The position numbers were made by a program, and so were the translations under genes. The notes beneath the pieces were generated by a model that saw only the letters and a list, made by a program, of their open reading frames with translations, was not told the DNA's origin and searched no databases. A DNA stretch of 64,000 nt. Source: a virus. The stretch lies in UHGV virus genome UHGV-0117634, one strand, 5' to 3'. Below are positions 1 through 41,384 of the stretch, piece after piece. Position 1 is the stretch's first letter, and every line of letters begins with the position of its first letter.

Positions 1-234
1 TAATAAAGCTCTTTATCTGGGGCTTAAGATACTACCTTTTAAACCCCATGTAAAGCACTTTATGAAATAATTTTTATAAAATCTTTCATGGTTATTTTGT
101 CGCCATTTGTTAGGGCTATGCAGTCATTGCCCATCACTGACTTGTAAAGGTAGAAAACCTTCCCAATTTTTGGATAACCATCTAAACCCTTGTAATGTAT
201 TACATCGCTTTCTTTAACCATTGTCAAGCCCTTT

Positions 235-441
235 TTAAACGTTGTAATAATAAATTGCTGTATGTCTTGTAAACTTTCTTGTGTGAGTTGTCAAGTAACA
301 ATCCGAATTAATTGATGTGTCAACATAATTATCATAATCCTTTTCTGATATTCTTTGCCAAACGTCGCAGATTAGCATATAAAAACGGCGTTTCTTTGTT
401 TTGTTGTTGTCAACAATCATTAATTCACGTTGATATAACAT
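235..441 (-). CDS. hypothetical protein (68 aa)
   Basis: ORF-track ORF downstream of the repeat-containing non-coding gap; no recognisable motif. Confidence 0.3.
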   Translation of the reverse strand: MLYQRELMIVDNNKTKKRRFYMLICDVWQRISEKDYDNYVDTSINSDCYLTTHTRKFTRHTAIYYYNV

Positions 442-696
442 CTTAGATTCTCCAGTTTAGGATTGTTGGGGCTTGCTTACCCCGTTGATGCAAATACTAC
501 AAAACTGGATTCATAGAGTCAACAAAATTTTTAAAAATATTTTTGGCATGTTGTGAATGAAACGCGTGTACGCAACTAACAGAAAACAGAAAACTAGTCA
601 AGAATTATTTTTTAGTTCTCTACAAATTTTTCTCTTGACTTTTGGGAGGAAGGGGAGTAAGAGGGGATGGTGGGGCTGGCTTCCTATAGCTACCTA

Positions 697-890
697 CCTG
701 CACAAATTGAAAATGAATTTTCCCTTTGGAGTCCAACTGCATCTGCACAGATTGAAAATGAAAAAGCTCTTTGGAGTCTAGACCTGCACAAATTGAAAAT
801 GAATTTTCCCTTTGGAGTTCAGCTAAAGAAATCTGTCCAGAGTTCTATGCAATTGCACCTGCACAAATTTGAAATGAAAAAGCCCTCCTT
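697..890. repeat. array of four ~37-bp direct repeats (unit ~CTGCACAAATTGAAAATGAA[TTTTCCC/AAAAGCT]CTTTGGAGT), period ~42-44 bp, in a ~500-bp non-coding gap
   Basis: Copies read at ~697, ~741, ~783 and ~857, alternating between two variants; the last copy abuts a long-loop hairpin (GCCCTCC...GGAGGGC) downstream of the macro-domain gene. Confidence 0.7.
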
Positions 891-948
891 ACCTGAGATT
901 TTAAACTCAAACTTTGGAGGGCTTGTCTATGTCTATTTAGGTAACTTA

Positions 949-1743
949 TTAGTTACGTGCTTCAACATAGTTAACATTCTCATGTGTGATATAATCCTCT
1001 GCAAACTCTTCTGTAGCAGCACCGATATACACACTTGCATCATCACCAAATGTTACGGCTCTGTGGCAATGGCCTTGTAACGGGTGGGTAACTTGAGCGT
1101 TACTTTGATTGTACTTCTCAACCGGAGGGTAACTGGTGTGTACCTTGCCATTACGCTTCACCTTGAGGGTAACTTTATCCTTGCCTACCACGGCAACACC
1201 ATCAAAGTATTGAGGTTCACTAAAGTTTTCCCAACCAGTAACCGGATTAGTCAACTGACTGTACATCTTATCTTCATAGACATACATATAAACGTCAACA
1301 TCTTTCATGGTCTGATTGATGATAGACAGCACAGCCATGCTGTCAAGACCACCAATCCCTGCACCAATCATAGGAAGTCCAACTTTCTTAAGCTGGTTCA
1401 CTTTGCAGTAGTTATTAAGACGCTGCAAAGCTGCTTCTAAAGCATTGTATCGTGCATCTTTACCAGTGATAACCTGAGTGTAAAGGTTAGCAATTCGACC
1501 CTGCTTAAAACGTGCTACAGAGATGTTACCAAGCATAAGATGCTTAGGTTTATGACCTTCACCACCAACTGTAGCATAAACTTCAGCGTCAGTCTCATAA
1601 GCTTTTGGATAACGTTTAGCAATTGTTGCTGCAATACCTGCACCCATTAAGTTCATGCAGTTACAACCGTGACCAATGATATCAAACTTCTTATTATCAA
1701 AGTCTTTAAAGATATCACCTTTAATAATTTTTATGATACCCAT
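949..1743 (-). CDS. macro-domain protein (TARG1/DarG-like ADP-ribose-binding/hydrolase fold) fused to a ~100-aa C-terminal domain of unknown function
   Basis: N-terminal GDIF...DIIGHGCNCMNLMGAGIAATIAKRYP and later GLPMIGAGIGGLD match the two glycine-rich ADP-ribose-binding loops of macro domains; C-terminal part (HPLQGHCHRAV...) unrecognised. Confidence 0.65.
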   Translation of the reverse strand: MGIIKIIKGDIFKDFDNKKFDIIGHGCNCMNLMGAGIAATIAKRYPKAYETDAEVYATVGGEGHKPKHLMLGNISVARFKQGRIANLYTQVITGKDARYNALEAALQRLNNYCKVNQLKKVGLPMIGAGIGGLDSMAVLSIINQTMKDVDVYMYVYEDKMYSQLTNPVTGWENFSEPQYFDGVAVVGKDKVTLKVKRNGKVHTSYPPVEKYNQSNAQVTHPLQGHCHRAVTFGDDASVYIGAATEEFAEDYITHENVNYVEARN

Positions 1744-1744
1744 G

Positions 1745-1945
1745 TTACCATTCCTCCCACGATTCTTTATCTTCAGAAGGTTTTACACGTTGCCCTTCAT
1801 GGTCTACCCAGATTCCACCACAACCTTCACAGAGTGTTGGCATAGCATAACCAGCTTTGAAATCATCTTCAGTGATAAGACCTTTCAAGTCTCCTGTATC
1901 ACGTCCAAACATTTCAATAGAACAACTCTTGCAGAAATCAGCCAT
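1745..1945 (-). CDS. small Cys-rich protein, possible zinc ribbon (66 aa)
   Basis: CKSC ... CEGCGG cysteine pairs; start abuts upstream gene. Confidence 0.4.
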   Translation of the reverse strand: MADFCKSCSIEMFGRDTGDLKGLITEDDFKAGYAMPTLCEGCGGIWVDHEGQRVKPSEDKESWEEW

Positions 1946-2159
1946 TTAAGATTACCTCTTGAGTGACTGTACGATTACTGGTGAAAGTCTGTTTAAAACT
2001 TTCAACGTTTGAACGTAAGAAGCCTTCATCCAAATAATATTTGAAGGTTTCTTTATGTGAGAAAACCTCGGTAAACGGGATTACTTCACTTCTCCCTACA
2101 TAGATACCAGATGCTATAATTTGCCGTGTCTTTTTATTTCTGACGATTAGAACTTTCAT
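1938..2159 (-). CDS. hypothetical protein (73 aa)
   Basis: ORF-track ORF in tightly packed leftward operon. Confidence 0.3.
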   Translation of the reverse strand: MKVLIVRNKKTRQIIASGIYVGRSEVIPFTEVFSHKETFKYYLDEGFLRSNVESFKQTFTSNRTVTQEVILNG

Positions 2160-2460
2160 ACATTACCTTTTCAGTTAGTTGATATAAGTCTACATGTTCA
2201 ATGCCAACAATGTCAATACCAATTTTAGCGTAACGCTCTTTGATATCATTATCGTTCATCCAAACGAGACACCAATGATTTCTAACAGACTCTTCGAGCT
2301 TATGTACACAATCTTGGAATGTTGGGGTATCGCCTCTTGTACCAATCATGGCGATTACACCATATAGAAACTCACCATTGCCATATGTCACTTGGGCTAC
2401 ACCAATATCTTTCTCATTATCTGAGAAGACGGCTACAATGGTTTTACCATTAAGTTCCAT
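2134..2460 (-). CDS. hypothetical protein (108 aa)
   Basis: ORF-track ORF; its start overlaps the stop of the upstream small ORF. Confidence 0.4.
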   Translation of the reverse strand: MELNGKTIVAVFSDNEKDIGVAQVTYGNGEFLYGVIAMIGTRGDTPTFQDCVHKLEESVRNHWCLVWMNDNDIKERYAKIGIDIVGIEHVDLYQLTEKVMYESSNRQK

Positions 2461-2620
2461 TATAGATTACCTCTTTAATTTGTTGTAAGATTGCTTCTGA
2501 AGCTTCTTCCCATAAGGTAGAGTTTTCAATTGAATCTTTAACCTGTGCAATACCAATATTAAAACGGGTATCACCATACTCTTCAATCAAGTTAAGAAGC
2601 TTCTGTTTGTCCACAATCAT
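2453..2620 (-). CDS. small hypothetical protein (~55 aa, not in ORF track)
   Basis: ATG preceded by GAGGA Shine-Dalgarno (minus strand AAAAACGAGGAAATG); stop overlaps start of 2134..2460; fills an otherwise empty gap. Confidence 0.4.
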
Positions 2621-2630
2621 TTCCTCGTTT

Positions 2631-2885
2631 TTAACGTTGCGTAGATTTCTTTGGAGTTTTCACCGAACCAGATGTAAGATTCGTGTTGATTTCAGGATGA
2701 TTGTCAACACGAATCTTACATTCTCTTCCAACATGTTTTAACTGTGCTGTAATACCCTGAATAAACAGGTGACACATTACATCATCCATGATAGTTGGTA
2801 AGAAATCAATTCTCATATAAGTGTTACTTGGTCTTGGAAGAAGTAAGTAACCTTCTACATAAAACGTTTCACTCTTTTCTGTCAT
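2631..2885 (-). CDS. hypothetical protein (84 aa)
   Basis: ORF-track ORF. Confidence 0.4.
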   Translation of the reverse strand: MTEKSETFYVEGYLLLPRPSNTYMRIDFLPTIMDDVMCHLFIQGITAQLKHVGRECKIRVDNHPEINTNLTSGSVKTPKKSTQR

Positions 2886-3151
2886 TGCTGTTTATTCCCT
2901 AACAAAATCATATCAATCAAATTGTTTGCCTTGATAGCACATTCATAGAATCCATCACGATAAAACTCCATAGCACTAGCAAGGTCTTCACCCTTAGTAC
3001 CCTTGACAGTGTACCTAGTCTCTTCCTGAGTGTACTTGTCACTCTCACTTACTTGGGAGTTTTTGAAGGTACTGTTCACTTTGTTGGTTGAACACCCCGA
3101 TATAAGGCTCAGTAGCACAAATATTATAAAACTCTGTCTTAGTTTTTTCAT
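2882..3151 (-). CDS. lipoprotein, candidate o-spanin (overlapped with upstream gene)
   Basis: Signal peptide with lipobox (LSLISG-C); starts inside the 3' end of 3045..3392 in another frame and extends beyond it (Rz/Rz1-like overlapped architecture). Not proline-rich, so uncertain. Confidence 0.4.
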   Translation of the reverse strand: MKKLRQSFIIFVLLSLISGCSTNKVNSTFKNSQVSESDKYTQEETRYTVKGTKGEDLASAMEFYRDGFYECAIKANNLIDMILLGNKQQ

Positions 3152-3392
3152 AGGTCAATACCTCTTTTGTGTGTTTGTTTTTAGCAAGCACATCTTTCAA
3201 ATCATTTTTATAATTAGCACTAAGATTTGCTAAACCTTCTTGGTAAGCATCCTTAGCAACACTAACAAGCTTCTGATTAGTCAACTCTTTCTCGTTAACT
3301 TGGCTAGTCTTGTAAGTGTAACCGCCCCAAGCACCTACACCTAACAGAAAAATGATTACAAAAGCTGCTTGACAAAATTCTTTAAATGTCAT
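3045..3392 (-). CDS. type-II membrane protein, candidate i-spanin
   Basis: N-terminal TMD (FVIIFLLGVGAWGG) followed by charged, coiled-coil-like periplasmic region; embedded lipoprotein ORF in +1 frame. Confidence 0.4.
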   Translation of the reverse strand: MTFKEFCQAAFVIIFLLGVGAWGGYTYKTSQVNEKELTNQKLVSVAKDAYQEGLANLSANYKNDLKDVLAKNKHTKEVLTYEKTKTEFYNICATEPYIGVFNQQSEQYLQKLPSK

Positions 3393-3411
3393 TTAACTTC
3401 TCCTATAAATG

Positions 3412-3433
3412 AAAAAGGCTCCCGAAGGAGCCT
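3412..3433 (-). terminator. rho-independent terminator (minus strand GGCTCC-TTCG-GGAGCC then T-run)
   Basis: Plus strand AAAAAGGCTCCCGAAGGAGCCT; perfect stem, tetraloop, T-run on minus strand; follows 3445..3909. Confidence 0.6.
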
Positions 3434-3444
3434 CTATATTAACC

Positions 3445-3909
3445 TTAACCTAGAACTTTAGCAAGCACATTTGCAGCCATTGTTGAGGCTTTAGCAGCAG
3501 CGTTAACCCCAGATTTAATGGTGCTGTCCTTGATAGCTGATACCGTTGCAGCATCAGTAAACAGATAAGTGGTAGTCTTTTCACCACTTGTGAAGGAAAG
3601 CATAAGAGCAGTTTCCAGATTGAAGGAACGGTATGGTGCTCCCTGTTTTACAATCCCTGCTGCACCAAGTTCTGAAGCCATACCCATATCATAGATGGTC
3701 ATCAGATTTTCTTTGTGAGCAGTTGTAGAACCAACACCTTTAACGTGTTTAGAAACATTCAGCAGAGCACGATACTCACGAATCTCTCCGTCAGCTTTGA
3801 CGTTTACTGCTCGGAAGATTTTACCTTCAAAGTTGTCTTTGATGATACGACGAACAACTTCAGATTTGTTTCCGGTTGCATCGATAGCTACTGTTATAAT
3901 ATTTTGCAT
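3445..3909 (-). CDS. hypothetical protein (154 aa)
   Basis: ORF-track ORF with GAGAGAG-containing leader and its own terminator. Confidence 0.5.
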   Translation of the reverse strand: MQNIITVAIDATGNKSEVVRRIIKDNFEGKIFRAVNVKADGEIREYRALLNVSKHVKGVGSTTAHKENLMTIYDMGMASELGAAGIVKQGAPYRSFNLETALMLSFTSGEKTTTYLFTDAATVSAIKDSTIKSGVNAAAKASTMAANVLAKVLG

Positions 3910-3920
3910 GGTTTTCTCTC

Positions 3921-4616
3921 TCAGTTTTTAACTAACATTGTTTTAATGTGTGGAAGGATTCTTTCGACCTTTGCCACGTTCTTTACTGTATCTTCTATAA
4001 AGCATACTACATCATAGTAAGGTAGAATGCAAGACTGAAGCATACGAACTTTCAAACTTTCTGCACTAATCTCATTGTCACCAAATCCACGCATAAACAG
4101 TAAGAAATCACTGTCTACATTTTCATTCAGGAAGAGATGAGTGACCACTCTCTGTGATTCACCACGAGCAGTTAAGAATCCTATATCAGCATTTTGTGAT
4201 ATCCCACACAGGATGTTAAAAACATAAGTTGGTTTAGCTCTGCGAGAGTCCACCAAGTTAGTGTACTGTGAGTAAGTACCATCATCTAACAGAGTTGCAT
4301 TAAGTTTCTTATCAAAACTTGTAAGAACACCATCAATATCTGCTAAGACCATTTTACGTTTTTCTTCCAAGTTCTTTGCAACCAAGATAAGACTATTACG
4401 ACCCACATATACAGTCTTACCTGTTAGCAAATCTTGACAAGGAATCTGTGTCTTTGTTGAATGAAAGTCTTCAAAGCTACATGCAACACATCTTGCTGTA
4501 TCTGCAAAGTCAGCTTTAGCAACGTCTGACCAGCTTGCATAACTGATATCTAAATCAAGTGGTTTGATATCATAAGCATGACACAGAACCGTATCAAATT
4601 GTTTTGATTCGCTCAT
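3921..4616 (-). CDS. HAD-like phosphatase-domain protein (putative nucleotidase), N-terminal region unknown
   Basis: LADIDGVLT matches HAD motif I (DxDG[TV]); later GFGDNE resembles motif IV. Confidence 0.35.
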   Translation of the reverse strand: MSESKQFDTVLCHAYDIKPLDLDISYASWSDVAKADFADTARCVACSFEDFHSTKTQIPCQDLLTGKTVYVGRNSLILVAKNLEEKRKMVLADIDGVLTSFDKKLNATLLDDGTYSQYTNLVDSRRAKPTYVFNILCGISQNADIGFLTARGESQRVVTHLFLNENVDSDFLLFMRGFGDNEISAESLKVRMLQSCILPYYDVVCFIEDTVKNVAKVERILPHIKTMLVKN

Positions 4617-5142
4617 ATTTTACCTTTTTAATGTTTGTTGCAAACTCACATTGAGCAAGCAATTTCATGTTATTGTACACATCTTGAGAATATTGTCTAG
4701 CCTTTGGAATCTTATATTTGTAACCAGCATTATAAGAAGCTAGGACACGCTTCATAGAGTACTTTCCATCTGGGTTACCGTGAACCTTTGTCCAGAATAG
4801 CAACTCTTTATGAGCCTCTTTTGCTGAGTAATGGAAGTCACTTACCAACTTCTTCTTAGCAACCTTTGGAGATATTTTGTTACGCTTTACAACAGTCTTC
4901 AAGTGATTCTGGAAAACACCATAATCATGAGTCCTTTTATTTTCTAACATGACACCTAATTGTGACTCTTGTAAGGCTATAGCTGCTAAAGGGATTCCCC
5001 AACCTTTTCCCATCTGTCCTTCGCCATAGTTATATGCTTTTAACATATTTACTTTCTGACTGATTGTAAGTTCTGGACAGTCAGATGCTGTAGCTAAATG
5101 TGCTGTAAAGAATAAGCACAAACCTAAAACAAATTTCTTCAT
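4594..5142 (-). CDS. signal-peptide lytic transglycosylase (candidate secreted/SAR endolysin)
   Basis: Start moved to MKKFVLGLCLFF (AGGAG RBS); signal peptide; Slt-like motifs ALQESQLG, GVFQ, SYNAGY. Confidence 0.55.
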   Translation of the reverse strand: MKKFVLGLCLFFTAHLATASDCPELTISQKVNMLKAYNYGEGQMGKGWGIPLAAIALQESQLGVMLENKRTHDYGVFQNHLKTVVKRNKISPKVAKKKLVSDFHYSAKEAHKELLFWTKVHGNPDGKYSMKRVLASYNAGYKYKIPKARQYSQDVYNNMKLLAQCEFATNIKKVKYERIKTI

Positions 5143-5206
5143 TTGCACTCCTATTTTGTTAAACATGCAGACAATTATACATCATCCTGCACATTTTTCA
5201 AATAAA

Positions 5207-5229
5207 AAAGGCTGCCGAAGCAGCCCTTT
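5207..5229 (-). terminator. rho-independent terminator after rIIB
   Basis: Plus AAAAAAGGCTGCCGAAGCAGCCCTTT; stem GGCTGC/GCAGCC with CGAA loop, flanking A/T runs. Confidence 0.55.
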
Positions 5230-5242
5230 AGGAATTTACTTA

Positions 5243-6364
5243 TTATACTTCACGTTTACGCTGAGAAATCAGTTCACCAGCAGTTCCTACAACTACATGA
5301 AGTGCTTCTGAACCATCCCACTCTTTGATGACTTCACGGCGACTATTCACAATCGCTGCAACTTCATAACGTGAAGCTCGCATTTTCATATCGTTGTAGT
5401 CAGTTGGTACTGAAACAACATCACGAGGATGAACACGAACTTTCAGGATAGTGTCGCCAGAGAAGCTAGTTACATAGTCCCAAGCCCCAACATGCAGACC
5501 CTGAGAGCATGTTACATGACGGTTATTATCAACCATCCAACGTGGCATCTCAACAATGTTACCCAAATCGTTTGGAACTTTGCAGGTACGAGAGTCAAAC
5601 AGTTTACCACTACGAGTTGTGACTTTCTTCCAACCGATGATATAACCTTCTTCATCGATTTCAACATCAAGGTGTGACACAAAGCCCCAAAGTTGTTCTA
5701 CAGAGTCTTTTGATGGGTTTTCCATCAGTTTTTCGAAGAATGCAATCAGACGGGTAAAGCCTTCATCACCTTTCTTCATCATGTCCAGAATACGGTCTAC
5801 CAGAGTTGAACGCATTTGAACAGCACCGTAGTACAGGTTATCACCTTTAATGGTCACAGCACCCTGAGTAAAGTTCTCAATGGATTTGCGAATATTCATC
5901 AGTTCAAAGGCTTTCTTGTACTCACCTGATACAACAGCCATAACAATTTCAGTGTAGTTAGGGTGAGTTGATTCAACAATCTCTGACTCTGCACCGAAAG
6001 TCATGATAACCGAGTCACCAGTAATCATGTATTCAATCTGACTATTATTCTGCATTGCTTCGTGCAGAGCATTTACAGGTTCTGCTTTGACTGCTTCTTT
6101 AACAGCTTTTGCAACAGGTTTCTGAGTAGCTACCTTTTTAGTTGCTTTAGCTTTCTTAGCACCCTTTGCAATATCCTTCAGAGTCCTCGCAGGTTTTGCT
6201 TTGGTTTTCCCTGTCAGTAAAGTTGCTTCATGACGCTCTACAGCACGACCTACAGAACGAGTTGAAGTATTGTACTTCAGAGCAATTGCAGTTTTGGTAA
6301 GTTTACCTTCTTTAACCAGTGCGTAGATTTCTGCGTCGATTTGTGCTTTAGTCTTAGTAGTCAT
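5243..6364 (-). CDS. rIIB: rIIB-like protein
   Basis: C-terminal region (RSTLVDRILD..., CSQGLHVGAW, VRVHPRDVVSVPTDYNDMKMR) matches T4 RIIB as I recall it; lies immediately downstream of rIIA as in T4. Confidence 0.85.
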   Translation of the reverse strand: MTTKTKAQIDAEIYALVKEGKLTKTAIALKYNTSTRSVGRAVERHEATLLTGKTKAKPARTLKDIAKGAKKAKATKKVATQKPVAKAVKEAVKAEPVNALHEAMQNNSQIEYMITGDSVIMTFGAESEIVESTHPNYTEIVMAVVSGEYKKAFELMNIRKSIENFTQGAVTIKGDNLYYGAVQMRSTLVDRILDMMKKGDEGFTRLIAFFEKLMENPSKDSVEQLWGFVSHLDVEIDEEGYIIGWKKVTTRSGKLFDSRTCKVPNDLGNIVEMPRWMVDNNRHVTCSQGLHVGAWDYVTSFSGDTILKVRVHPRDVVSVPTDYNDMKMRASRYEVAAIVNSRREVIKEWDGSEALHVVVGTAGELISQRKREV

Positions 6365-6407
6365 TTTAATATCTCTCTTTGTTGTTTAAAGTTACTTAGT
6401 GGTTCGT

Positions 6408-6436
6408 ATTCTAAGGGGCTTTTCAGCCCCTGTCAA
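6408..6436 (-). promoter_or_regulatory. sigma70-like promoter for rIIB (TTGACA-N17-TAGAAT) with a GGGGCTGAAAAGCCCC hairpin in the spacer
   Basis: Minus strand TTGACA, 17-nt spacer made almost entirely of a perfect 6-bp-stem hairpin, then TAGAAT ~40 nt upstream of the rIIB ATG. Confidence 0.45.
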
Positions 6437-6443
6437 ACTATTT

Positions 6444-8816: not shown

Positions 8817-8849
8817 AAGAATATCTCCTTAGTTGTCGATGTGGCAAAC

Positions 8850-8877
8850 TATATAATTTTATAGATGCCACTGTCAA
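8850..8877 (-). promoter_or_regulatory. sigma70-like promoter upstream of rIIA (TTGACA-N16-TATATA)
   Basis: Minus strand TTGACAgtggcatctataaaatTATATA about 30 nt upstream of the rIIA ATG. Confidence 0.4.
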
Positions 8878-8878
8878 G

Positions 8879-9058
8879 TTACTTTTTAAATTTCTTTCCA
8901 GTTCCGTTGCAGTAAGGGCAACAATGTCCCATACCAGCTATACCAGAACCTTCACACTCATCACAAGGTTCTGTCTCTGAGAAGTACTTGCATAGTAGCA
9001 CTGCAATGGCAACAATACAACCTAATGATAGAACAATCTCTAACCAATAACTTTGCAT
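8879..9058 (-). CDS. small membrane-anchored protein with two CxxCxGxG (DnaJ-type zinc-finger) motifs (~59 aa, not in ORF track)
   Basis: Translation MQSYWLEIVLSLGCIVAIAVLLCKYFSETEPCDECEGSGIAGMGHCCPYCNGTGKKFKK: one TMD then CDECEGSG and CPYCNGTG. Confidence 0.4.
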   Translation of the reverse strand: MQSYWLEIVLSLGCIVAIAVLLCKYFSETEPCDECEGSGIAGMGHCCPYCNGTGKKFKK

Positions 9059-27212: not shown

Positions 27213-29175
27213 TATCCTCGTTAATCACAGGTGGAATGGTGGAACTTTCACGTTGTTCTTGTGTGTAAATCTCTCCAGATTCACGGTCAAAATCAACATC
27301 TTCATAGTGTGGCATAGAGTCATCGTAATGGTCTTCAGCCTCACCAATACCAAACTGCTGACGAATATTCTCTGCTGCACCATCAATATCAACACCACAT
27401 CCAGCAGCCTTTACAAGACGACCTGTATCTGGATTATACCAAGTGTGACCAGCAATACCAGTTGACTTACCATGACGGCGACATTTTGTTAGCTTGATTT
27501 TTGTCAAGTTCTTTTTAACAGGGTCTGGGTCAACCTTGTTACGCATAAGCAAAATGTTGTTCATGGAAATCTGGAAGTATGCACCAGAACCCTTGATATC
27601 TTCTTCAGAAATATCACCACCTTCAGAGTTGGCCTTTTGACCACCTGCACTCTTACGAACGTGACATACGTTTACCTGAGCATACTGATAACGCTTACAG
27701 CGACGAAGTAACTCAGACAGAACTTCTTCTTCATCTGTATCAGAGCGTGACAGTGCCAATGTAATAGGGTCAAGGATGATAATCTTACAATCGAGACTGT
27801 TAACAAGATAGTCAACAAACTCCAGCAGGTTATCTTGGTCAATTGCCCCTTGGTGGTCTACGATGTGAATACGACGACCTTTTGATAACTCAGCATGTGC
27901 AACCTTAATCTCATCCCAATTACGCTCATCGTAAGGAATCTCTGAAATCTGCTTACTAAGATGGATTGCACAGAGCATTTCCATAAGTTCTTCGTAAGTA
28001 TCCTCTACAGGAATCACACCGATGTTGTACTCAGTATCTTTCCATGCTTTGTAAATCATCTCACGAGTATATGCAGATTTACCTACAGATGAAGGTGCAG
28101 CAAGGGTTGTAATCTCGCCTAAACCATACCCGCCATAAGTCAGCTTATTCAAATCCCCGAAAGAATCTGGGAAAGGAATTAAAGGAATCTGACCACGATT
28201 CTTCATAGCATCGAAACCGTCTGCAAAGTTCTTGATACCAGCAGGACAGTAACGAGGTGCATTGTAGATTCGTTGTTTAAATCCTTCTAAGACTGTATCT
28301 TTGTCTTTGAAGAACTTAGTCCACCACTCACTAAGGTCTTTAATACCTTCAGGATACTGGAACAGTCTTACTTTCTCAATAGGTAAGATACCAGCAGCTT
28401 CCTTAGTTGCTTTAGCCCCTGCTTCATCATTATCAAAGCACAGGTAGATTTCATCAAAGGAAGTAATATACTGATAGTTCTCTTTGATAGACTTAACATT
28501 AGCACCAGATGGTACAGAAACGTGGCAGTAATTCTTACGTCTAGACTTATCTTTAATTGCTAAAGAAGTCATGTAGATTGCTGTAGCACATTCCATCTCA
28601 CCTTCCCAGATGAAAAGACGGTTACCACCTTCTGGAGCAATCCATGAACCGAACATAGCCAGTTCACCTTTAATATCTCCGACACCACCAGAAAAGTCTT
28701 TCAACTTCCCACGTAAGTGCTCTTTGTGATAGTCATCTGGATATTTGTGACGAACACGATAACCTACATGTTGCAACTTACCATCTTCATCTTTTTTGTA
28801 TGTTGGATAGAAATGTGCATCAATGTCGCCATTATCGTCAATATCAACTTTAATACCAAGACGCTCAAGGACTTTTGCAGGAATCTTCCTGTCTTTTAAA
28901 TCCATTGCTTCTAGGTTTTCTTTCACATCATCCAAATCCATACCACGAAATGTACGGTTTTTATTCTCTGAACCTGAAGTATGAGTACTCACAATCTGCC
29001 CTTTATCAAAATCCCACTCTGGAAAACCTTTTCCACAACTGAAACATGTCATTGAATATGAACCGTCATCATGACGATATATAGAACCTGCATCTGAAGA
29101 TAAACATTGAGGGCGTGGACATGCACAGTGACCTACAAATGTTCCAGCATCTTTCAGTTTTCTCTGTTTAGCCAT
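27184..29175 (-). CDS. DNA primase-helicase (T7 gp4-like)
   Basis: N-terminal Cys4 zinc finger (CACPRPQC...CFSCGKG), primase core, DnaB-type helicase with Walker A (AAPSSVGKS). Confidence 0.85.
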   Translation of the reverse strand: MAKQRKLKDAGTFVGHCACPRPQCLSSDAGSIYRHDDGSYSMTCFSCGKGFPEWDFDKGQIVSTHTSGSENKNRTFRGMDLDDVKENLEAMDLKDRKIPAKVLERLGIKVDIDDNGDIDAHFYPTYKKDEDGKLQHVGYRVRHKYPDDYHKEHLRGKLKDFSGGVGDIKGELAMFGSWIAPEGGNRLFIWEGEMECATAIYMTSLAIKDKSRRKNYCHVSVPSGANVKSIKENYQYITSFDEIYLCFDNDEAGAKATKEAAGILPIEKVRLFQYPEGIKDLSEWWTKFFKDKDTVLEGFKQRIYNAPRYCPAGIKNFADGFDAMKNRGQIPLIPFPDSFGDLNKLTYGGYGLGEITTLAAPSSVGKSAYTREMIYKAWKDTEYNIGVIPVEDTYEELMEMLCAIHLSKQISEIPYDERNWDEIKVAHAELSKGRRIHIVDHQGAIDQDNLLEFVDYLVNSLDCKIIILDPITLALSRSDTDEEEVLSELLRRCKRYQYAQVNVCHVRKSAGGQKANSEGGDISEEDIKGSGAYFQISMNNILLMRNKVDPDPVKKNLTKIKLTKCRRHGKSTGIAGHTWYNPDTGRLVKAAGCGVDIDGAAENIRQQFGIGEAEDHYDDSMPHYEDVDFDRESGEIYTQEQRESSTIPPVINEDNDDCPFETD

Positions 29176-34816: not shown

Positions 34817-35070
34817 GCAGCAAAGAAGAAGAAGGTTTAGCAATAATCCGTCACAAAAACCCTCAGATATCATTCGTTTCTGAAGCATGGTGTCGTGGTT
34901 TAGACTATCAATGGTACTTAGATTTGTGTAAAATGAAATCTGTAGAGCCAGTAAAAGAAGGGACTTTCAAGGAACTTTACAAGACCGTCCAAGAAGGTTA
35001 CGAAGAAAACTGTGAAAAAGGAAATCAACTATGTGGAAAACAATCATTGCACTTGGAGTGCTTTTTCTAA
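34813..35070 (+). CDS. hypothetical protein (~85 aa)
   Basis: Start moved to second Met (GGAGA RBS, ATGA overlap with the upstream stop). Confidence 0.4.
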   Translation: MSSKEEEGLAIIRHKNPQISFVSEAWCRGLDYQWYLDLCKMKSVEPVKEGTFKELYKTVQEGYEENCEKGNQLCGKQSLHLECFF

Positions 35071-35276
35071 CTGGCTGTAACCCAAGCTACGATAACAAAG
35101 AAGGGAGCTACACACTACCTCCAGAGATGAGAGATTGCTCAATCTATCGGCTGAATGGTTCCATGATTAATAGGGACTTGGTAGTTGTTCGTTGTCCAAA
35201 TTCACAGACTACAACTACCTCTAAAGTTGGTAGAAGTAGTACCCAAAGTGTAACAGTTATCAACGAAGGATATTAA
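35031..35276 (+). CDS. small lipoprotein (candidate superinfection-exclusion protein)
   Basis: Signal peptide plus lipobox (VLFLTG-C), ~60-aa mature part with two further Cys. Confidence 0.45.
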   Translation: MWKTIIALGVLFLTGCNPSYDNKEGSYTLPPEMRDCSIYRLNGSMINRDLVVVRCPNSQTTTTSKVGRSSTQSVTVINEGY

Positions 35277-35484: not shown

Positions 35485-36581
35485 CAATTCTGTACAAACA
35501 AAACAAAGATGGTTCTTTCAACGTTTGGTCATGTGTTGCTGTAGGTGATAAAGTTGTTACAACCTACGGTAAAGAAAATGGCAAGATGATGTTCGAAGAG
35601 TACACAGCAGAACCAAAGAACATTGGTAAGAAGAATGAGCGTAATGCTGAACAGCAAGCTCTCTTTGAAGTTGCTGCTAAGTACAAGAAGCAAGTTGACC
35701 GTAAAGGATACGCTTACACAAAATCTGAAGCAGAGAATGTTGAGAAGGTTGGTGTACAGCTTGCTCAAGATGCTTCCAAGATAAGTCATAAGAAATATTT
35801 GAAGTTCCCTGCTGACGCTCAACCAAAACTTGATGGTGTTCGTTGCAGGATTTCAAGGAATACTGATACTGTAAGCTTCACAGCTTATTCTCGTGAGAAT
35901 ACGGTATATAGCATACCTGAAGAGTTAATTCCTGATGTTCTTCTCATGTTGAAGCTTCACAAAGATGTTAAAGACTTCGATGGTGAGATTTATGCTCATG
36001 GTTGGGACTTAGAAGATATTGTTTCGATGATTAAGAATGCTGACAATCCAGACCGTCACCTTCTTAAATTCTACTGGTATGATATCTGTGACAAGACCAA
36101 ATCTTGGCCTGAGCGTCGTGAAGTTATTGACAATTCGCCAATCGTTGAACTCGGTGATGCTTGCAGGGTTGTACCTGTTCAGACAATACGTGTCAACTCT
36201 TGGGAAGAGTTTGATACTGCTCATGACAATTGGGTTAAGCTTAAGTTTGAAGGGGCAATGTATCGCTCAATCTCACCAGATTCGTTCTATGAGTGTAGTC
36301 ACCGTTCATACTTCCTGATTAAGCATAAGAAGATGCACACACAGGAATTTAAAGTAACTGGTGTAAAGACTGATAAGCGTGGTCATGGCAAGTTCGTTGT
36401 AGAAACACTTCCTAATGTCTTTGTAGATGTTTCATGGAAGACTACACACGAGAAGAAACAGTATCTTGCTGAACATCCTGAAGAGTTTATCGGGAAACCT
36501 TTGACTGTTCAGTTCCAGAAGATGACTCGTAAGGGTTCTTTACAGTTCCCTGTTGGGCTAGTAATTCGAGACTATGAATAG
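35481..36581 (+). CDS. ATP-dependent DNA ligase (T7-like)
   Basis: Adenylation motif I KLDGVR; size 366 aa. Confidence 0.85.
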   Translation: MTILYKQNKDGSFNVWSCVAVGDKVVTTYGKENGKMMFEEYTAEPKNIGKKNERNAEQQALFEVAAKYKKQVDRKGYAYTKSEAENVEKVGVQLAQDASKISHKKYLKFPADAQPKLDGVRCRISRNTDTVSFTAYSRENTVYSIPEELIPDVLLMLKLHKDVKDFDGEIYAHGWDLEDIVSMIKNADNPDRHLLKFYWYDICDKTKSWPERREVIDNSPIVELGDACRVVPVQTIRVNSWEEFDTAHDNWVKLKFEGAMYRSISPDSFYECSHRSYFLIKHKKMHTQEFKVTGVKTDKRGHGKFVVETLPNVFVDVSWKTTHEKKQYLAEHPEEFIGKPLTVQFQKMTRKGSLQFPVGLVIRDYE

Positions 36582-40815: not shown

Positions 40816-41190
40816 TTATTTCTTTTTAGTGCTTTGGGTATTTTGTTCTGTAATTGCCTGCAAAGCTGATACAGATTGTGCTAAGTTGTTAACACTGTCA
40901 GAGAACTTATCAAGGGTCTTAGTCAACTTAGCGTTTTCTCCCTTAACATTCTCTAGCTGAACTTTCTGGTTCTCCATCCCTAATTGTAGGAGCTTCATAT
41001 CAGATTGTAAGTCACGAATAGCTGAATAGTTACCTTTTGAGTAACCATCCAACTGCTGTAACTTATTTGTGATAGACACTTCCTGTTTACCATCAGAGAC
41101 CTGCATTGTAGTGTACATACCAATTACACTGAAAATACCTACAACGATTGCACCAATATTATTCTTAAAAGCATCTTCAAGCCACTTCAT
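40816..41190 (-). CDS. membrane-anchored coiled-coil protein (124 aa)
   Basis: N-terminal TMD (IGAIVVGIFSVIGMY) then heptad-rich region; no embedded lipoprotein ORF seen. Confidence 0.45.
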   Translation of the reverse strand: MKWLEDAFKNNIGAIVVGIFSVIGMYTTMQVSDGKQEVSITNKLQQLDGYSKGNYSAIRDLQSDMKLLQLGMENQKVQLENVKGENAKLTKTLDKFSDSVNNLAQSVSALQAITEQNTQSTKKK

Positions 41191-41384
41191 TATTTCTCAC
41201 CTTTAAAAGCCTTTTCCAAGGTATCTACAAATTCATCATCAATAGGTGTATCTGTTTTACTCGCAAGGTATCTTGCAAGCTTAAAGAACACTTTTTCAAT
41301 CATGTATTCGCTAAGAAGAGAAAGTAGAAGCTTCCAGAAGAATGCCCCAAGATTTTTCAAGAGGATTGCTAGAATGGTTGGCAT
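41190..41384 (-). CDS. small single-TMD protein (64 aa), holin-like
   Basis: Hydrophobic N-terminus, charged C-terminus; located after tail fiber genes with its own promoter. Confidence 0.4.
   Translation of the reverse strand: MPTILAILLKNLGAFFWKLLLSLLSEYMIEKVFFKLARYLASKTDTPIDDEFVDTLEKAFKGEK

Follow-up and report, generated by a model that had tools for sequence, protein, structure and literature searches.

In the Mooglevirus genome analysed here, the rII-proximal region very probably encodes two unrelated envelope functions about 1.2 kb apart: a predicted two-component spanin, and a Vs.1-like protein that would be an accessory enzyme and not the endolysin. The window (the whole stretch of DNA that was analysed, 64 kb) comes from the genome of a Mooglevirus (Ounavirinae, Felix O1-like) with 98.9% identity to Citrobacter phage Moogle, and 258 records are related to it. 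All of the open reading frames described in an initial annotation of this region are present on the minus strand at the same coordinates (Table 1).

Table 1. Features of the rII-proximal region and the putative holin gene, in window coordinates
Feature	Position	Strand	Remarks
Overlapped o-spanin gene (predicted), 89 aa	2882..3151	-	lipoprotein signal; mature part of 70 aa without proline
Dual-coding overlap, 107 nt	3045..3151	-	i-spanin 3' end and o-spanin 5' end (signal peptide, lipobox)
i-spanin gene (predicted), 115 aa	3045..3392	-	transmembrane helix at the N-terminus; periplasmic domain predicted to be helical, with invariant Cys92
Intrinsic terminator-like hairpin, 9-bp stem and T run	3414..3435	-	separates the upstream unit from the start of the i-spanin gene
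Conserved hypothetical gene, 154 aa, PHROG 2267	3445..3909	-	final gene of the Vs.1-like unit
HAD/PNKP-phosphatase-like gene, 231 aa, annotated 'polynucleotide kinase'	3921..4616	-	PHROG 3970
Vs.1-family secreted GH23 (SLT-like) lytic transglycosylase candidate, 182 aa	4594..5142	-	signal peptide 1-19, catalytic Glu59-Ser60, Cys22/Cys165
Sigma70-like promoter, TTGAAA-16-TATAAT, 11/12	5174..5201	-	directly upstream of the Vs.1-like gene
Intrinsic terminator-like hairpin	5206..5229	-	after rIIB
Putative holin homologue, 124 aa, 96% identical to Moogle's	40819..41190	-	tblastn; Moogle annotation

Gene order and transcription units

The neighbours of the Vs.1-like gene are rIIA/rIIB and a macro-domain protein gene, all of the early host-takeover or exclusion type. 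Two genes and a terminator separate it from the spanins, which places it in a different transcription unit, and terminators are annotated in wV8 and Mordin at places matching both hairpins of Table 1. The HAD/PNKP-phosphatase-like gene overlaps the Vs.1-like stop by 23 nt; its product gives only weak local matches to T4 PseT, to the C-terminal phosphatase half, and the homologue of this product in a distant contig (L014) has a Pfam match to HAD_PNKP. The product of the next gene, the conserved hypothetical protein, is 40% identical to its own homologue in L014. An NCBIfam search with five genes of the region gave nothing useful for any of them.

The order rIIB, Vs.1-like gene, PNK-like gene, 154-aa hypothetical gene and spanins is kept from Mooglevirus to LPML1. 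Beyond this range the two functions come apart: T4 has Vs.1 together with spanins that are unrelated to those of the window and lie 73 kb away, Kuravirus EK5 has homologous spanins without Vs.1 (the family is absent from Kuravirus), and L014 keeps rIIB and the Vs.1-like gene with no detectable spanin homologue near by. The Vs.1-like gene and the spanins are thus not coupled across phages, and the synteny conserved inside the Ounavirinae still leaves room for a functional link there. As for expression, T4 vs.1 gives an early RNA and a middle protein, and the T4 spanins are also transcribed into early RNA. Felix O1 ORFs 3, 4 and 6 peak at 25 min, the numbers 3-7 having been mapped presumptively onto the window genes by gene order.

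The overlapped spanin pair

On the evidence of their sequences, the genes at 3045..3392 and 2882..3151 form a predicted overlapped two-component spanin that is already annotated and catalogued. Consistent with the spanin-like pair proposed by the initial annotation, the i-spanin matches PHROG 1152 ('Rz-like spanin') with E=9.6e-35, and the genes are annotated as i-spanin and o-spanin in Moogle, Mordin, Michonne and others. The Moogle annotation is given in the Moogle paper (PMC4319497), and Felix01, FO1a and UAB_phi87 are among the overlapped spanins in the census of Kongari et al. 2018 (PMC6139136). The pair agrees with the Felix O1/Moogle spanins (CPT_Moogle122/121) in gene order, overlap, lipobox and the placing of Cys, with no difference of substance, and the o-spanin is 100% identical to that of Moogle. 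Some relatives carry a mis-annotated o-spanin with a truncated start (65-73 aa), by which the signal peptide is lost.

The i-spanin has an AGGAG ribosome-binding site 7 nt upstream of its ATG at 3392, and its best 17-residue hydrophobic window spans residues 6-22 (FCQAAFVIIFLLGVGAW, mean Kyte-Doolittle 2.12). Cys92 is invariant in the alignment and the conserved motifs are present. The AF2 model of this protein is helical throughout at low confidence, and no fold claim was retained from it because a pLDDT of 57.5 is too poor. The o-spanin gene has AAGAGG upstream of its ATG at 3151 and encodes a lipoprotein signal (MKKLRQSFIIFVLLSLISG, followed by C-S-T) with the lipobox LISG-C20; Cys20, Ser21 and Thr22 are invariant in the alignment, and the residue at +2 is Ser, not Asp, which predicts sorting of the outer-membrane type. 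Toward the C-terminus the motif EFYRDGFYxC is conserved, and its Cys71 is nearly invariant. Periplasmic cysteines, of which at least one occurs in 507 of the 528 known spanin systems (PMC6139136), are therefore represented in the pair by i-Cys92 and o-Cys71.

Both frames behave as coding sequence. A six-frame scan of the 64-kb window found only 2 lipoprotein-signal ORFs of at least 50 aa, one of them the o-spanin gene, compared with 0.15 expected from shuffles. In a comparison of six Ounavirinae sequences, the fraction of codon differences that are synonymous is 0.56 for the i-frame in the i-only part and 0.63 for the o-frame in the o-only part, against 0.05-0.17 in the wrong frames; in the overlap it is intermediate in both frames, and site variability is lower there (0.196, versus 0.31 and 0.37). 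Purifying selection acts on both spanin frames. The arrangement is kept in 8/8 phages examined. The o-spanin ORF with its lipobox is present in wV8, Suspvirus, LPML1 and Kuravirus EK5; as far out as EK5 and LPML1, a distant member of the Ounavirinae, neither ORF has been lost, nor has the lipobox or the one periplasmic Cys of each subunit, and the Kuravirus homologues are likewise annotated as spanins.

As in lambda Rz/Rz1 and T4 PseT.3/PseT.2, a type II inner-membrane protein is paired with an outer-membrane lipoprotein, the i-spanin gene comes first, and periplasmic cysteines are present. The architectures differ, the window pair being overlapped, the lambda pair embedded and the T4 pair separated. 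The initial annotation was right in seeing an Rz/Rz1-like pair of out-of-frame genes but not in calling it embedded, because the o-spanin starts inside the i-spanin gene and ends 163 nt beyond its stop. The window pair has one periplasmic Cys per subunit, whereas the T4 proteins have 0 and 2, and its mature o-spanin has zero prolines, in contrast to the conserved penta-proline stretch of lambda Rz1 (PMC6139136). This paucity of proline had been observed correctly and taken as a reason for doubt, which it is not: a proline-rich region is likewise missing from the o-spanin family of T4, which has been tested functionally (PMC6139136). The T4 spanins are moreover expressed early, as those of the window would also be, and in both phages the genes are unlinked to holin and endolysin and lie near a PNK-type gene. 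This last resemblance led us to examine homology to PseT.3/PseT.2, which was rejected, with no detectable similarity.

It is very unlikely that the pair is some other inner-membrane/lipoprotein system, for example one serving exclusion. Such an identity would be in keeping with the position of the genes after a terminator in the early/middle region, with an o-spanin that lacks proline and has only a weak match (E=0.006) to a named spanin PHROG, its top PHROG being of 'unknown function', and with the literature searched, in which no functional test of the Felix O1-type family was found. Yet every sequence-level hallmark of a spanin is found in the pair, the Moogle genome has no other annotated spanin candidate, the Kuravirus homologues bear the same annotation, and the functional spanins of T4 are themselves early, proline-poor and unlinked to holin and endolysin.

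As a spanin, the pair would work by the steps of the lambda Rz/Rz1 and T4 PseT.3/PseT.2 paradigm, from which we infer them. The N-terminal helix would hold the i-spanin in the inner membrane; the o-spanin would receive its lipid at Cys20 and, having Ser at +2, would go to the outer membrane. Their periplasmic C-terminal parts would bind each other, and the resulting bridge, passing through the peptidoglycan mesh, would be stabilised by homotypic disulfides for which i-Cys92 and o-Cys71 are the probable sites. In the last step of lysis, after destruction of the wall by the endolysin, these complexes would fuse both membranes.

A predicted secreted Vs.1-family protein resembling SLT transglycosylases

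As initially described, the product of the gene at 4594..5142 is a signal-peptide protein encoded two genes upstream of the spanins and carries Slt-type motifs: QES at residues 58-60, GVFQ at 75-78 and SYNAG at 136-140. The start first assumed, the ATG at 5142, also holds, with an AGGAG ribosome-binding site. The signal peptide, MKKFVLGLCLFFTAHLATA, is followed by SD. Its h-region, FVLGLCLFFTAHLATA, has a mean Kyte-Doolittle value of 1.92 and only 38% G/A/S/T, and is followed by an A-x-A signal-peptidase site before Ser, a predicted cleavage site whose small-x-small pattern is kept in relatives. Identity as a SAR endolysin was rejected on these grounds, the signal being strongly hydrophobic, not Gly/Ala-rich, and equipped with a predicted cleavage site.

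The protein scores 17.6 bits against Pfam SLT (PF01464; E=0.0029), below the gathering score of 21.3, yet 52 of the 109 family members match this model at E<=0.001 (best 2.8e-12); the protein is therefore predicted to belong to a divergent SLT subfamily. In the alignment of the family, Glu59, Tyr137 and Tyr151 are invariant (109/109 each), and Ser60 (106/109), Gly75 (105/109), Asn138 (98/109) and Gly140 (108/109) nearly so. An N-terminal hydrophobic segment is found in 103 of the 109 members. Cys22 and Cys165 covary, both being present in 63 and neither in 41. The best match of the 109-sequence profile among solved structures in the PDB is EtgA (8urn, E=3.9e-5), and Glu59 falls on the glutamate of the EtgA sequence 'AWNES' in the HMM alignment, in support of a GH23 lysozyme-like fold. 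PDB sequence matches obtained from the single protein or from a 10-sequence profile (PRP4 kinase, for instance) were discarded as spurious, and a Foldseek search of the protein against the PDB returned nothing significant.

The homologue in T4 is Vs.1 (NP_049725), which aligns over its full length (BLASTP E=6e-14, 31% identity over 178 residues); the family HMM scores 1e-36 for T4 Vs.1 and 3e-55 for the window protein, and tblastn found a homologue in 1,870 phage records, some of which label the matched gene vs.1. The two proteins are of similar length (181 and 182 aa), each has an N-terminal signal peptide, and they have in common the motifs ES, YG(V/M)FQN and SYN(A/S)G as well as Y151; a macro-domain (Tk.4-like) gene lies near by in both genomes. 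They differ in that T4 Vs.1 lacks the Cys22/Cys165 pair, and in gene place: T4 vs.1 is flanked by regB and vs and is remote from rII and the spanins, whereas the window gene follows rIIB. A note in the Mordin record that the gene is 'similar to T4 RegB' was rejected and is an annotation carry-over, because the T4 homologue is vs.1, the gene adjoining regB. The SLT-like similarity of Vs.1 in T4-like phages was already noted in a 2006 comparative paper and, as cited there, in an earlier PSI-BLAST report for T4. The searchable literature yielded neither an enzymatic activity nor an experimental function for any member of the Vs.1 family, and nothing beyond this comparative paper.

The 'specialised' transglycosylases of the EtgA/IagB/IpgF type are also small (~150-180 aa), Sec-exported, single-domain GH23 proteins, but they are enzymes of secretion systems, whereas the phage protein is encoded outside any secretion-system operon. 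The Asp before the glycine of GxxQ is invariant in the close Ounavirinae subfamily alone; most members of the wider family have Ser or Ala instead. Among phage proteins, the Sec- or SAR-exported endolysins P1 Lyz, phage 21 R and fOg44 Lys44 likewise place an export signal before a muralytic domain. Unlike them, the present protein has what looks like a cleavable Sec-type signal and a gene with no adjoining holin or pinholin, and it occurs in a phage with a separate cytoplasmic GH24 endolysin.

Lysis genes and possible roles of the Vs.1-like protein

The lysis enzyme of this lineage is annotated at a distant locus, as a GH24 lysozyme at 69546..70010 in Moogle, and the GH24 lysozyme of the nearest relative, S.Kent 1-2-1, lies ~11 kb beyond the window start; the Felix O1 endolysin is gp35. 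A search of the 64-kb window for a canonical endolysin found none. The putative holin gene is far from the spanins, which indicates that the lysis genes are scattered, in agreement with the published view that they do not form a cassette (including the Moogle paper, PMC4319497). The sole strong PHROG of this putative holin is the unknown-function family 4038, and no family match confirms a holin. The observation that no canonical holin is adjacent to the spanins is borne out by the equivalent Moogle region, in which none is annotated.

These data bear on the proposal of a lysis cassette in which the SLT-like protein is the endolysin, Sec-exported without a holin or controlled by a pinholin, and works with the adjacent spanins. 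We regard it as extremely unlikely, even though a muralytic fold is combined with an export signal, the spanins are close and their synteny is kept within the Ounavirinae, several GenBank records say 'putative lysin', and the holin of the lineage is putative. Set against this are the canonical soluble GH24 endolysins of Moogle, S.Kent 1-2-1 and Felix O1, the published scattering of the lysis genes, the gene's own sigma70-like promoter with a terminator before the spanins, and a hydrophobic signal with an AxA site that is unlike a Gly/Ala-rich SAR domain. In addition, the homologous spanins of EK5 work with that phage's own holin-lysin cassette in the absence of Vs.1, and T4 carries vs.1 and nevertheless needs gene e for progeny release (PMC7650644). 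The earlier view of a lysis cluster with a secreted endolysin consequently does not hold, given the endolysin encoded elsewhere, the separate promoter and terminator and the lack of coupling across phages; nor does holin-independent or pinholin control, given the soluble GH24 endolysin of the lineage and the putative holin. The Vs.1-like enzyme is, as far as sequence comparison can tell, not the main lysis enzyme of the phage. A role as a virion-associated wall hydrolase was also rejected, on the basis of the Sec signal and of the absence of gp3 from the Felix O1 virion proteome.

In the preferred reading, a host-type promoter of its own would drive synthesis of the Vs.1-like protein before the late genes, early to middle in infection. 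Sec would export the protein, which would be cleaved after Ala19 (between ATA and SD), be oxidised to form a Cys22-Cys165 disulfide, and act in the periplasm as a single-glutamate lytic transglycosylase, an accessory wall-remodelling enzyme of limited activity and not an endolysin. Destruction of the wall at lysis would fall to the cytoplasmic GH24 lysozyme, a separate enzyme whose release would depend on a holin gene at another locus.

What such an enzyme might do is a more tentative matter. EtgA, its closest solved relative, belongs to the 'specialised' transglycosylases and makes a local opening in the wall for an envelope-spanning machine. The Vs.1-like enzyme may assist lysis or condition the envelope in cooperation with the spanins, widening peptidoglycan pores for the i-/o-spanin bridges or pre-weakening the wall to sharpen lysis; the linkage in the Ounavirinae would then be meaningful even though the enzyme is not the endolysin. 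Besides the EtgA match, this idea draws on the gene order conserved from rIIB to the spanins between Mooglevirus and LPML1, the periplasmic location predicted for both sets of products, the early RNA from which both Vs.1 and the spanins are made in T4, and the suggestion of Nolan et al. of 'some role in cell lysis'. It is nonetheless rather unlikely, as vs.1 and the spanin genes are unlinked in T4, Kuravirus has homologous spanins and no Vs.1 family, and L014 has rIIB and the Vs.1-like gene with no detectable spanin homologue near by.

Somewhat less doubtful, and still improbable on balance, is a periplasmic role unrelated to lysis, such as modification of the wall against superinfecting phage, production of anhydromuropeptide signals, or non-catalytic glycan binding. 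Expression before the late genes in T4 and Felix O1, the host-type promoter and the adjoining rIIA/rIIB and macro-domain genes, which are early and of the host-takeover or exclusion type, would suit it, and T4 Spackle, another early periplasmic protein, serves superinfection exclusion (PMC7677548). Against this stands the near-complete invariance of Glu59-Ser60, Tyr137 and Tyr151 across 109 diverse members, which argues for catalysis.

Taken together, these data describe an ordinary region, since the spanins are already catalogued and the Vs.1-like enzyme is predicted not to be the main lysis enzyme; with its SLT-likeness noted in 2006, the region carries little weight as a discovery. It does reveal misleading database labels: the Vs.1-like gene appears as 'putative lysin', 'RegB-like' or similar, and the o-spanin is often called with a truncated start that removes its signal peptide. 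The Vs.1-like protein, a candidate secreted transglycosylase whose predicted catalytic glutamate is invariant, is conserved in two large groups of virulent myoviruses (T4-like and Felix O1-like, about 1,870 phage records). A conjecture, and a rather unlikely one, is that large virulent myoviruses have in the Vs.1 family an envelope-conditioning factor that has so far escaped recognition. Such a factor could open peptidoglycan locally for spanin bridges or other trans-envelope structures, or tune lysis timing or superinfection exclusion, and, if the conjecture is true, an envelope-conditioning Vs.1 would add a further player to the holin-endolysin-spanin scheme.

An overlapped spanin pair

Over window positions 2500..5400 the genome is 98.9% identical to Citrobacter phage Moogle (Mooglevirus, Ounavirinae, Felix O1-like), and 258 phage records match this region, 248 of them with at least 80% query coverage. 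The two genomes are collinear, window 4..6443 corresponding to the right-hand end of Moogle and 6444 onward to its sequence from position 1, and every gene of the spanin/Vs.1-like region lies on the minus strand. The initial annotation had described a Rz/Rz1-like embedded pair here. Both of its ORFs are in place, with the o-spanin gene starting inside the i-spanin gene in the other frame, but the two share 107 nt and the o-spanin gene runs 163 nt past the i-spanin stop, so the architecture is overlapped rather than embedded.

Genes and transcription signals in the window
Feature	Coordinates	Strand	Details
i-spanin	3045..3392	-	115 aa; AGGAG RBS 7 nt 5' of ATG
o-spanin	2882..3151	-	89 aa; AAGAGG RBS 5' of ATG
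Second terminator	3435..3414	-	between hyp154 gene and i-spanin start
Vs.1-like (SLT-like) gene	4594..5142	-	182 aa; signal peptide MKKFVLGLCLFFTAHLATA followed by SD; motifs QES, GVFQ, SYNAG
Sigma70-like promoter	5201..5174	-	11/12; directly precedes Vs.1-like gene
rIIB terminator	5229..5206	-	5' of SLT-like gene
Sigma70-like promoter	6408..6436	-	11/12; 5' of rIIB
Sigma70-like promoter	8848..8877	-	11/12; 5' of rIIA
Putative holin homologue	40819..41190	-	124 aa; 96% identity to Moogle

The most hydrophobic 17-residue window of the i-spanin spans residues 6-22 (FCQAAFVIIFLLGVGAW), and the o-spanin opens with a textbook lipoprotein signal, MKKLRQSFIIFVLLSLISG followed by C, with Ser as the +2 residue. 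A six-frame scan of the whole 64 kb with all possible starts yielded only 2 lipoprotein-signal ORFs of at least 50 aa, against a chance level of 0.15 (mean over twenty shuffles). The two spanin ORFs, together with their lipobox Cys and C-terminal motifs, persist in HP1, Moogle, Mordin, wV8 and a pair of Suspvirus genomes, and also in the distant Ounavirinae phage LPML1 and Kuravirus EK5. When six equally long Ounavirinae sequences were compared, the share of codon differences that were synonymous was 0.56 in the i-frame (i-only part) and 0.63 in the o-frame (o-only part), against 0.05-0.17 in the wrong frames. Within the overlap the fraction is intermediate in both frames (0.23 and 0.32) and variable sites are fewer (0.196, versus 0.31 and 0.37 outside), which is a dual-coding signature. 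Both overlapping genes are real; selection acts in both frames, and the pair also shows the homology and topology signals of spanins.

For the i-spanin the PHROG match is family 1152 ('Rz-like spanin', E=9.6e-35). The o-spanin has a strong match to an unnamed PHROG and only a weak one to a spanin PHROG. Exactly these two genes are labeled i-spanin and o-spanin in Moogle (Center for Phage Technology), whose o-spanin is 100% identical to the one analyzed here and whose lysis proteins are given as a soluble lysozyme endolysin, two spanins and a putative holin (PMC4319497). Furthermore, the overlapped spanins of Kongari et al. include Felix01, FO1a and UAB_phi87 (PMC6139136). The pair is hence already annotated and catalogued, and the PHROG match, the Moogle labels and this listing of the Felix O1 group uphold the initial spanin call. 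The mature o-spanin (70 aa) contains zero proline, which is unusual with respect to lambda but not disqualifying, because the functionally validated T4 o-spanin family has no stretch rich in proline either (PMC6139136). Each subunit has one conserved periplasmic Cys (i-Cys92 and o-Cys71), consistent with the general rule that spanins bear periplasmic cysteines for intermolecular disulfides (PMC6139136). No sequence similarity to T4 PseT.3 or PseT.2 was found for the pair. AF2 models the i-spanin as wholly helical, with a confidence (pLDDT 57.5) so low that we make no fold claim.

Following the lambda/T4 paradigm, the i-spanin in the inner membrane and the lipoprotein o-spanin in the outer membrane would bind through their C-terminal regions, in complexes probably stabilized by homotypic disulfides. 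Peptidoglycan would cage these complexes until the GH24 endolysin destroys the wall, whereupon the two membranes would be fused.

In many records and metagenome gene calls the o-spanin starts at internal codons (65-73 aa), losing the n- and h-regions of its signal; examples are 3265..3462 of the HP1 locus (L002), 2805..3011 of the CHB7 and PC79-13 loci (L008 and L009) and protein clusters P0185-P0200. The sole other lipoprotein-signal ORF, 35031..35276 (+; 81 aa, MWKTIIALGVLFLTG followed by CNPSY...), corresponds by window-to-Moogle offset to the 'hypothetical protein' CPT_Moogle40 (Moogle 28366..28602), which belongs to the plus-strand genes that follow the DNA polymerase gene; a role as an exclusion-type lipoprotein is conceivable.

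A predicted exported member of the T4 Vs.1 family

The signal peptide and all three Slt-type motifs reported by the initial annotation are present in the Vs.1-like protein. An AGGAG site precedes its ATG at 5142, while another ATG, upstream at 5166, is just 8 nt past the -10 hexamer. A tblastn search of phage genomes found the protein in 1,870 records, which include Felix O1-like phages and approximately 1,600 remoter matches, located in large genomes of Escherichia, Klebsiella, Aeromonas, Vibrio and Acinetobacter phages, in some of which the matching gene is called vs.1. The full length of T4 Vs.1 (181 aa, NC_000866 61726..62271) is covered by the alignment, at 31% identity (E=6e-14), and the signal peptide and all motifs are shared. 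The gene is thus a member of the previously noted Vs.1 family, on which we found no experimental work in the literature searched. An SLT-like similarity of Vs.1 in T4-like phages has been in print since 2006, and Nolan et al. suggested some part in cell lysis. Some records label Vs.1 homologues 'RegB' or 'RegB domain-containing', names apparently taken over from the adjacent T4 gene.

Taken alone, the protein scores 17.6 bits against Pfam SLT, just below the 21.3 threshold, and it falls in PHROG 600, of 'unknown function'. A profile search of 1.84 billion representatives returned 603 relatives at E<=0.001, the best 150 being mostly 150-210 aa long. Across 109 diverse aligned members, Glu59, Tyr137 and Tyr151 never vary, and Ser60, Gly75 and Gly140 hardly do; 103 members have an N-terminal hydrophobic segment and 52 match Pfam SLT at E<=0.001. 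The best solved sequence for the family profile is EtgA (E=3.9e-5), with Glu59 aligning to the glutamate of its 'AWNES' motif; Foldseek of the AF2 model (pLDDT 75.5) against PDB gave no significant match. Cys22 and Cys165 occur together in 63 sequences and are both missing from 41, with 5 exceptions (counts uncorrected for phylogeny), suggesting a disulfide and hence an oxidizing periplasmic location. The Vs.1-like protein combines a GH23 fold, an invariant catalytic Glu, an export signal and a Cys pair with its own host-type promoter.

The strongly hydrophobic h-region, followed by A-T-A and then S, has the look of a cleavable Sec signal rather than a SAR anchor, and the protein would be exported by Sec and cleaved after Ala19. 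The position matching the second acidic residue of goose-type lysozymes is Asp73 here and Ser or Ala in most family members, which favors a transglycosylase-type single-acid mechanism; the predicted reaction is that of a single-Glu lytic transglycosylase.

Transcription units and gene order

Near-consensus sigma70-like promoters lie 5' of rIIA, rIIB and the Vs.1-like gene, apparently a separate host-type promoter for each gene or unit. Both terminators are also annotated in wV8 and Mordin. In Felix O1, with ORF numbers equated to the present genes from their order, as in wV8, RT-PCR signals peak at 25 min for ORFs 3, 4 and 6 and at 10 min for ORF 5, neither of which is late; gp3 is absent from the virion proteome (PMC3185647). 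In T4, the PMC9697503 supplement lists vs.1 as early RNA and middle protein, so Vs.1 is made, and pseT.2 and pseT.3 as early RNA too. Activity of the Vs.1-like protein may be limited or regulated, because an exported wall hydrolase made before the late stage must not lyse the cell prematurely.

Ounavirinae conserve the order rIIB, Vs.1-like, PNK-like, hyp154, spanins, macro. In T4 the spanins lie 73 kb from Vs.1 and are not homologous to those analyzed here. A homologous overlapped pair does occur in Kuravirus EK5, which also encodes a holin-lysin cassette of its own, and in its whole 77.8 kb the Vs.1-family HMM found no match at E<=10 (controls: 3e-55 for the window, 1e-36 for T4). In a distant 84-kb phage contig rIIB and the Vs.1-like gene are retained, but no spanin homologue was detected near them. 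Vs.1 and spanins are doubly dissociated between T4 and EK5. An accessory lysis or spanin-conditioning role, to which the conserved Ounavirinae order would lend itself and this dissociation would not, seems unlikely; a periplasmic role outside lysis, compatible with the pre-late timing and the host-type promoter, is somewhat more plausible, if still doubtful.

The product of the 'polynucleotide kinase' gene of relatives (3921..4616, -) resembles T4 PseT only weakly and locally, in the C-terminal HAD/phosphatase half (with a DIDGVL motif), and no P-loop kinase motif was seen in it; the label probably over-annotates a phosphatase-only protein with an 80-aa N-terminal part of no assigned function. 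The macro-domain protein (949..1743, -; PHROG 335, 'phosphatase') shares 31% identity with the T4 Tk.4 region (T4 locus L012, 2935..3327); a macro-domain gene lies near Vs.1 in both T4 (vs.1-vs-tk.4) and Ounavirinae, and directly 3' of the spanins in EK5. Directly downstream of the o-spanin, gene 2631..2885 (-) has a 1-nt deletion and adjacent substitutions at ~2677..2684 relative to Moogle and S.Kent 1-2-1, frameshifting its final ~19 codons (84 aa, versus 89 aa ending ...LKTRK in all relatives); the cause may be either an error in the sequence or a genuine mutation. A tandem repeat at 696..818 (period 41, 2.8 copies, 76% matches) sits in a ~500-bp non-coding gap (442..948) between minus-strand genes, and direct repeats (DR_1, DR_6 and others) are annotated in the wV8 equivalent. 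Upstream of rIIA, a 59-aa ORF (8879..9058, -) encodes a single transmembrane segment and, after it, two CxxCxGxG motifs that resemble a DnaJ-type zinc finger (MQSYWLEIVLSLGCIVAIAVLLCKYFSETEPCDECEGSGIAGMGHCCPYCNGTGKKFKK).

Endolysin, holin and the lysis-cluster proposal

The initial annotation had taken the signal-peptide Slt-type protein for a secreted endolysin in a lysis cluster under holin-independent or pinholin-type control. In Moogle the endolysin, a soluble GH24 lysozyme, maps to 69546..70010 and the putative holin to 36143..36517. No endolysin homologue was found within the window; in S.Kent 1-2-1, the nearest relative, the lysozyme lies ~11 kb beyond the window start. Felix O1 lysis is assigned to gp35, of the Phage_lysozyme family, and holin-lysin cassettes are described as absent (PMC3185647). 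According to PMC7650644, T4 progeny release requires gene e despite vs.1, and e and 5 are the only recognized T4 lysozyme genes. Its fold and export signal notwithstanding, the Vs.1-like protein is thus very improbable as the true endolysin, given the separate GH24 lysozyme of Moogle, S.Kent 1-2-1 and Felix O1 and the T4 requirement for e. Nor is a lysis cluster with holin-independent control supported, in view of the putative holin homologue, the promoter of the Vs.1-like gene and the terminator before the spanins.

The putative holin has one N-terminal TM segment and a long polar tail and adjoins a 64-aa hydrophobic protein (41193..41384, -). For both, the only PHROG matches are to families of unknown function; five other holin candidates are named for Felix O1 (PMC3185647).

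Taken together, these data confirm the initial observation and show its interpretation to be partly right: the spanins and the Vs.1 family were already known, and a secreted-endolysin, holin-independent lysis cluster is not supported. We read the Ounavirinae gene order as inherited synteny of a pre-late (early/middle) block rather than as an operon-level functional unit.
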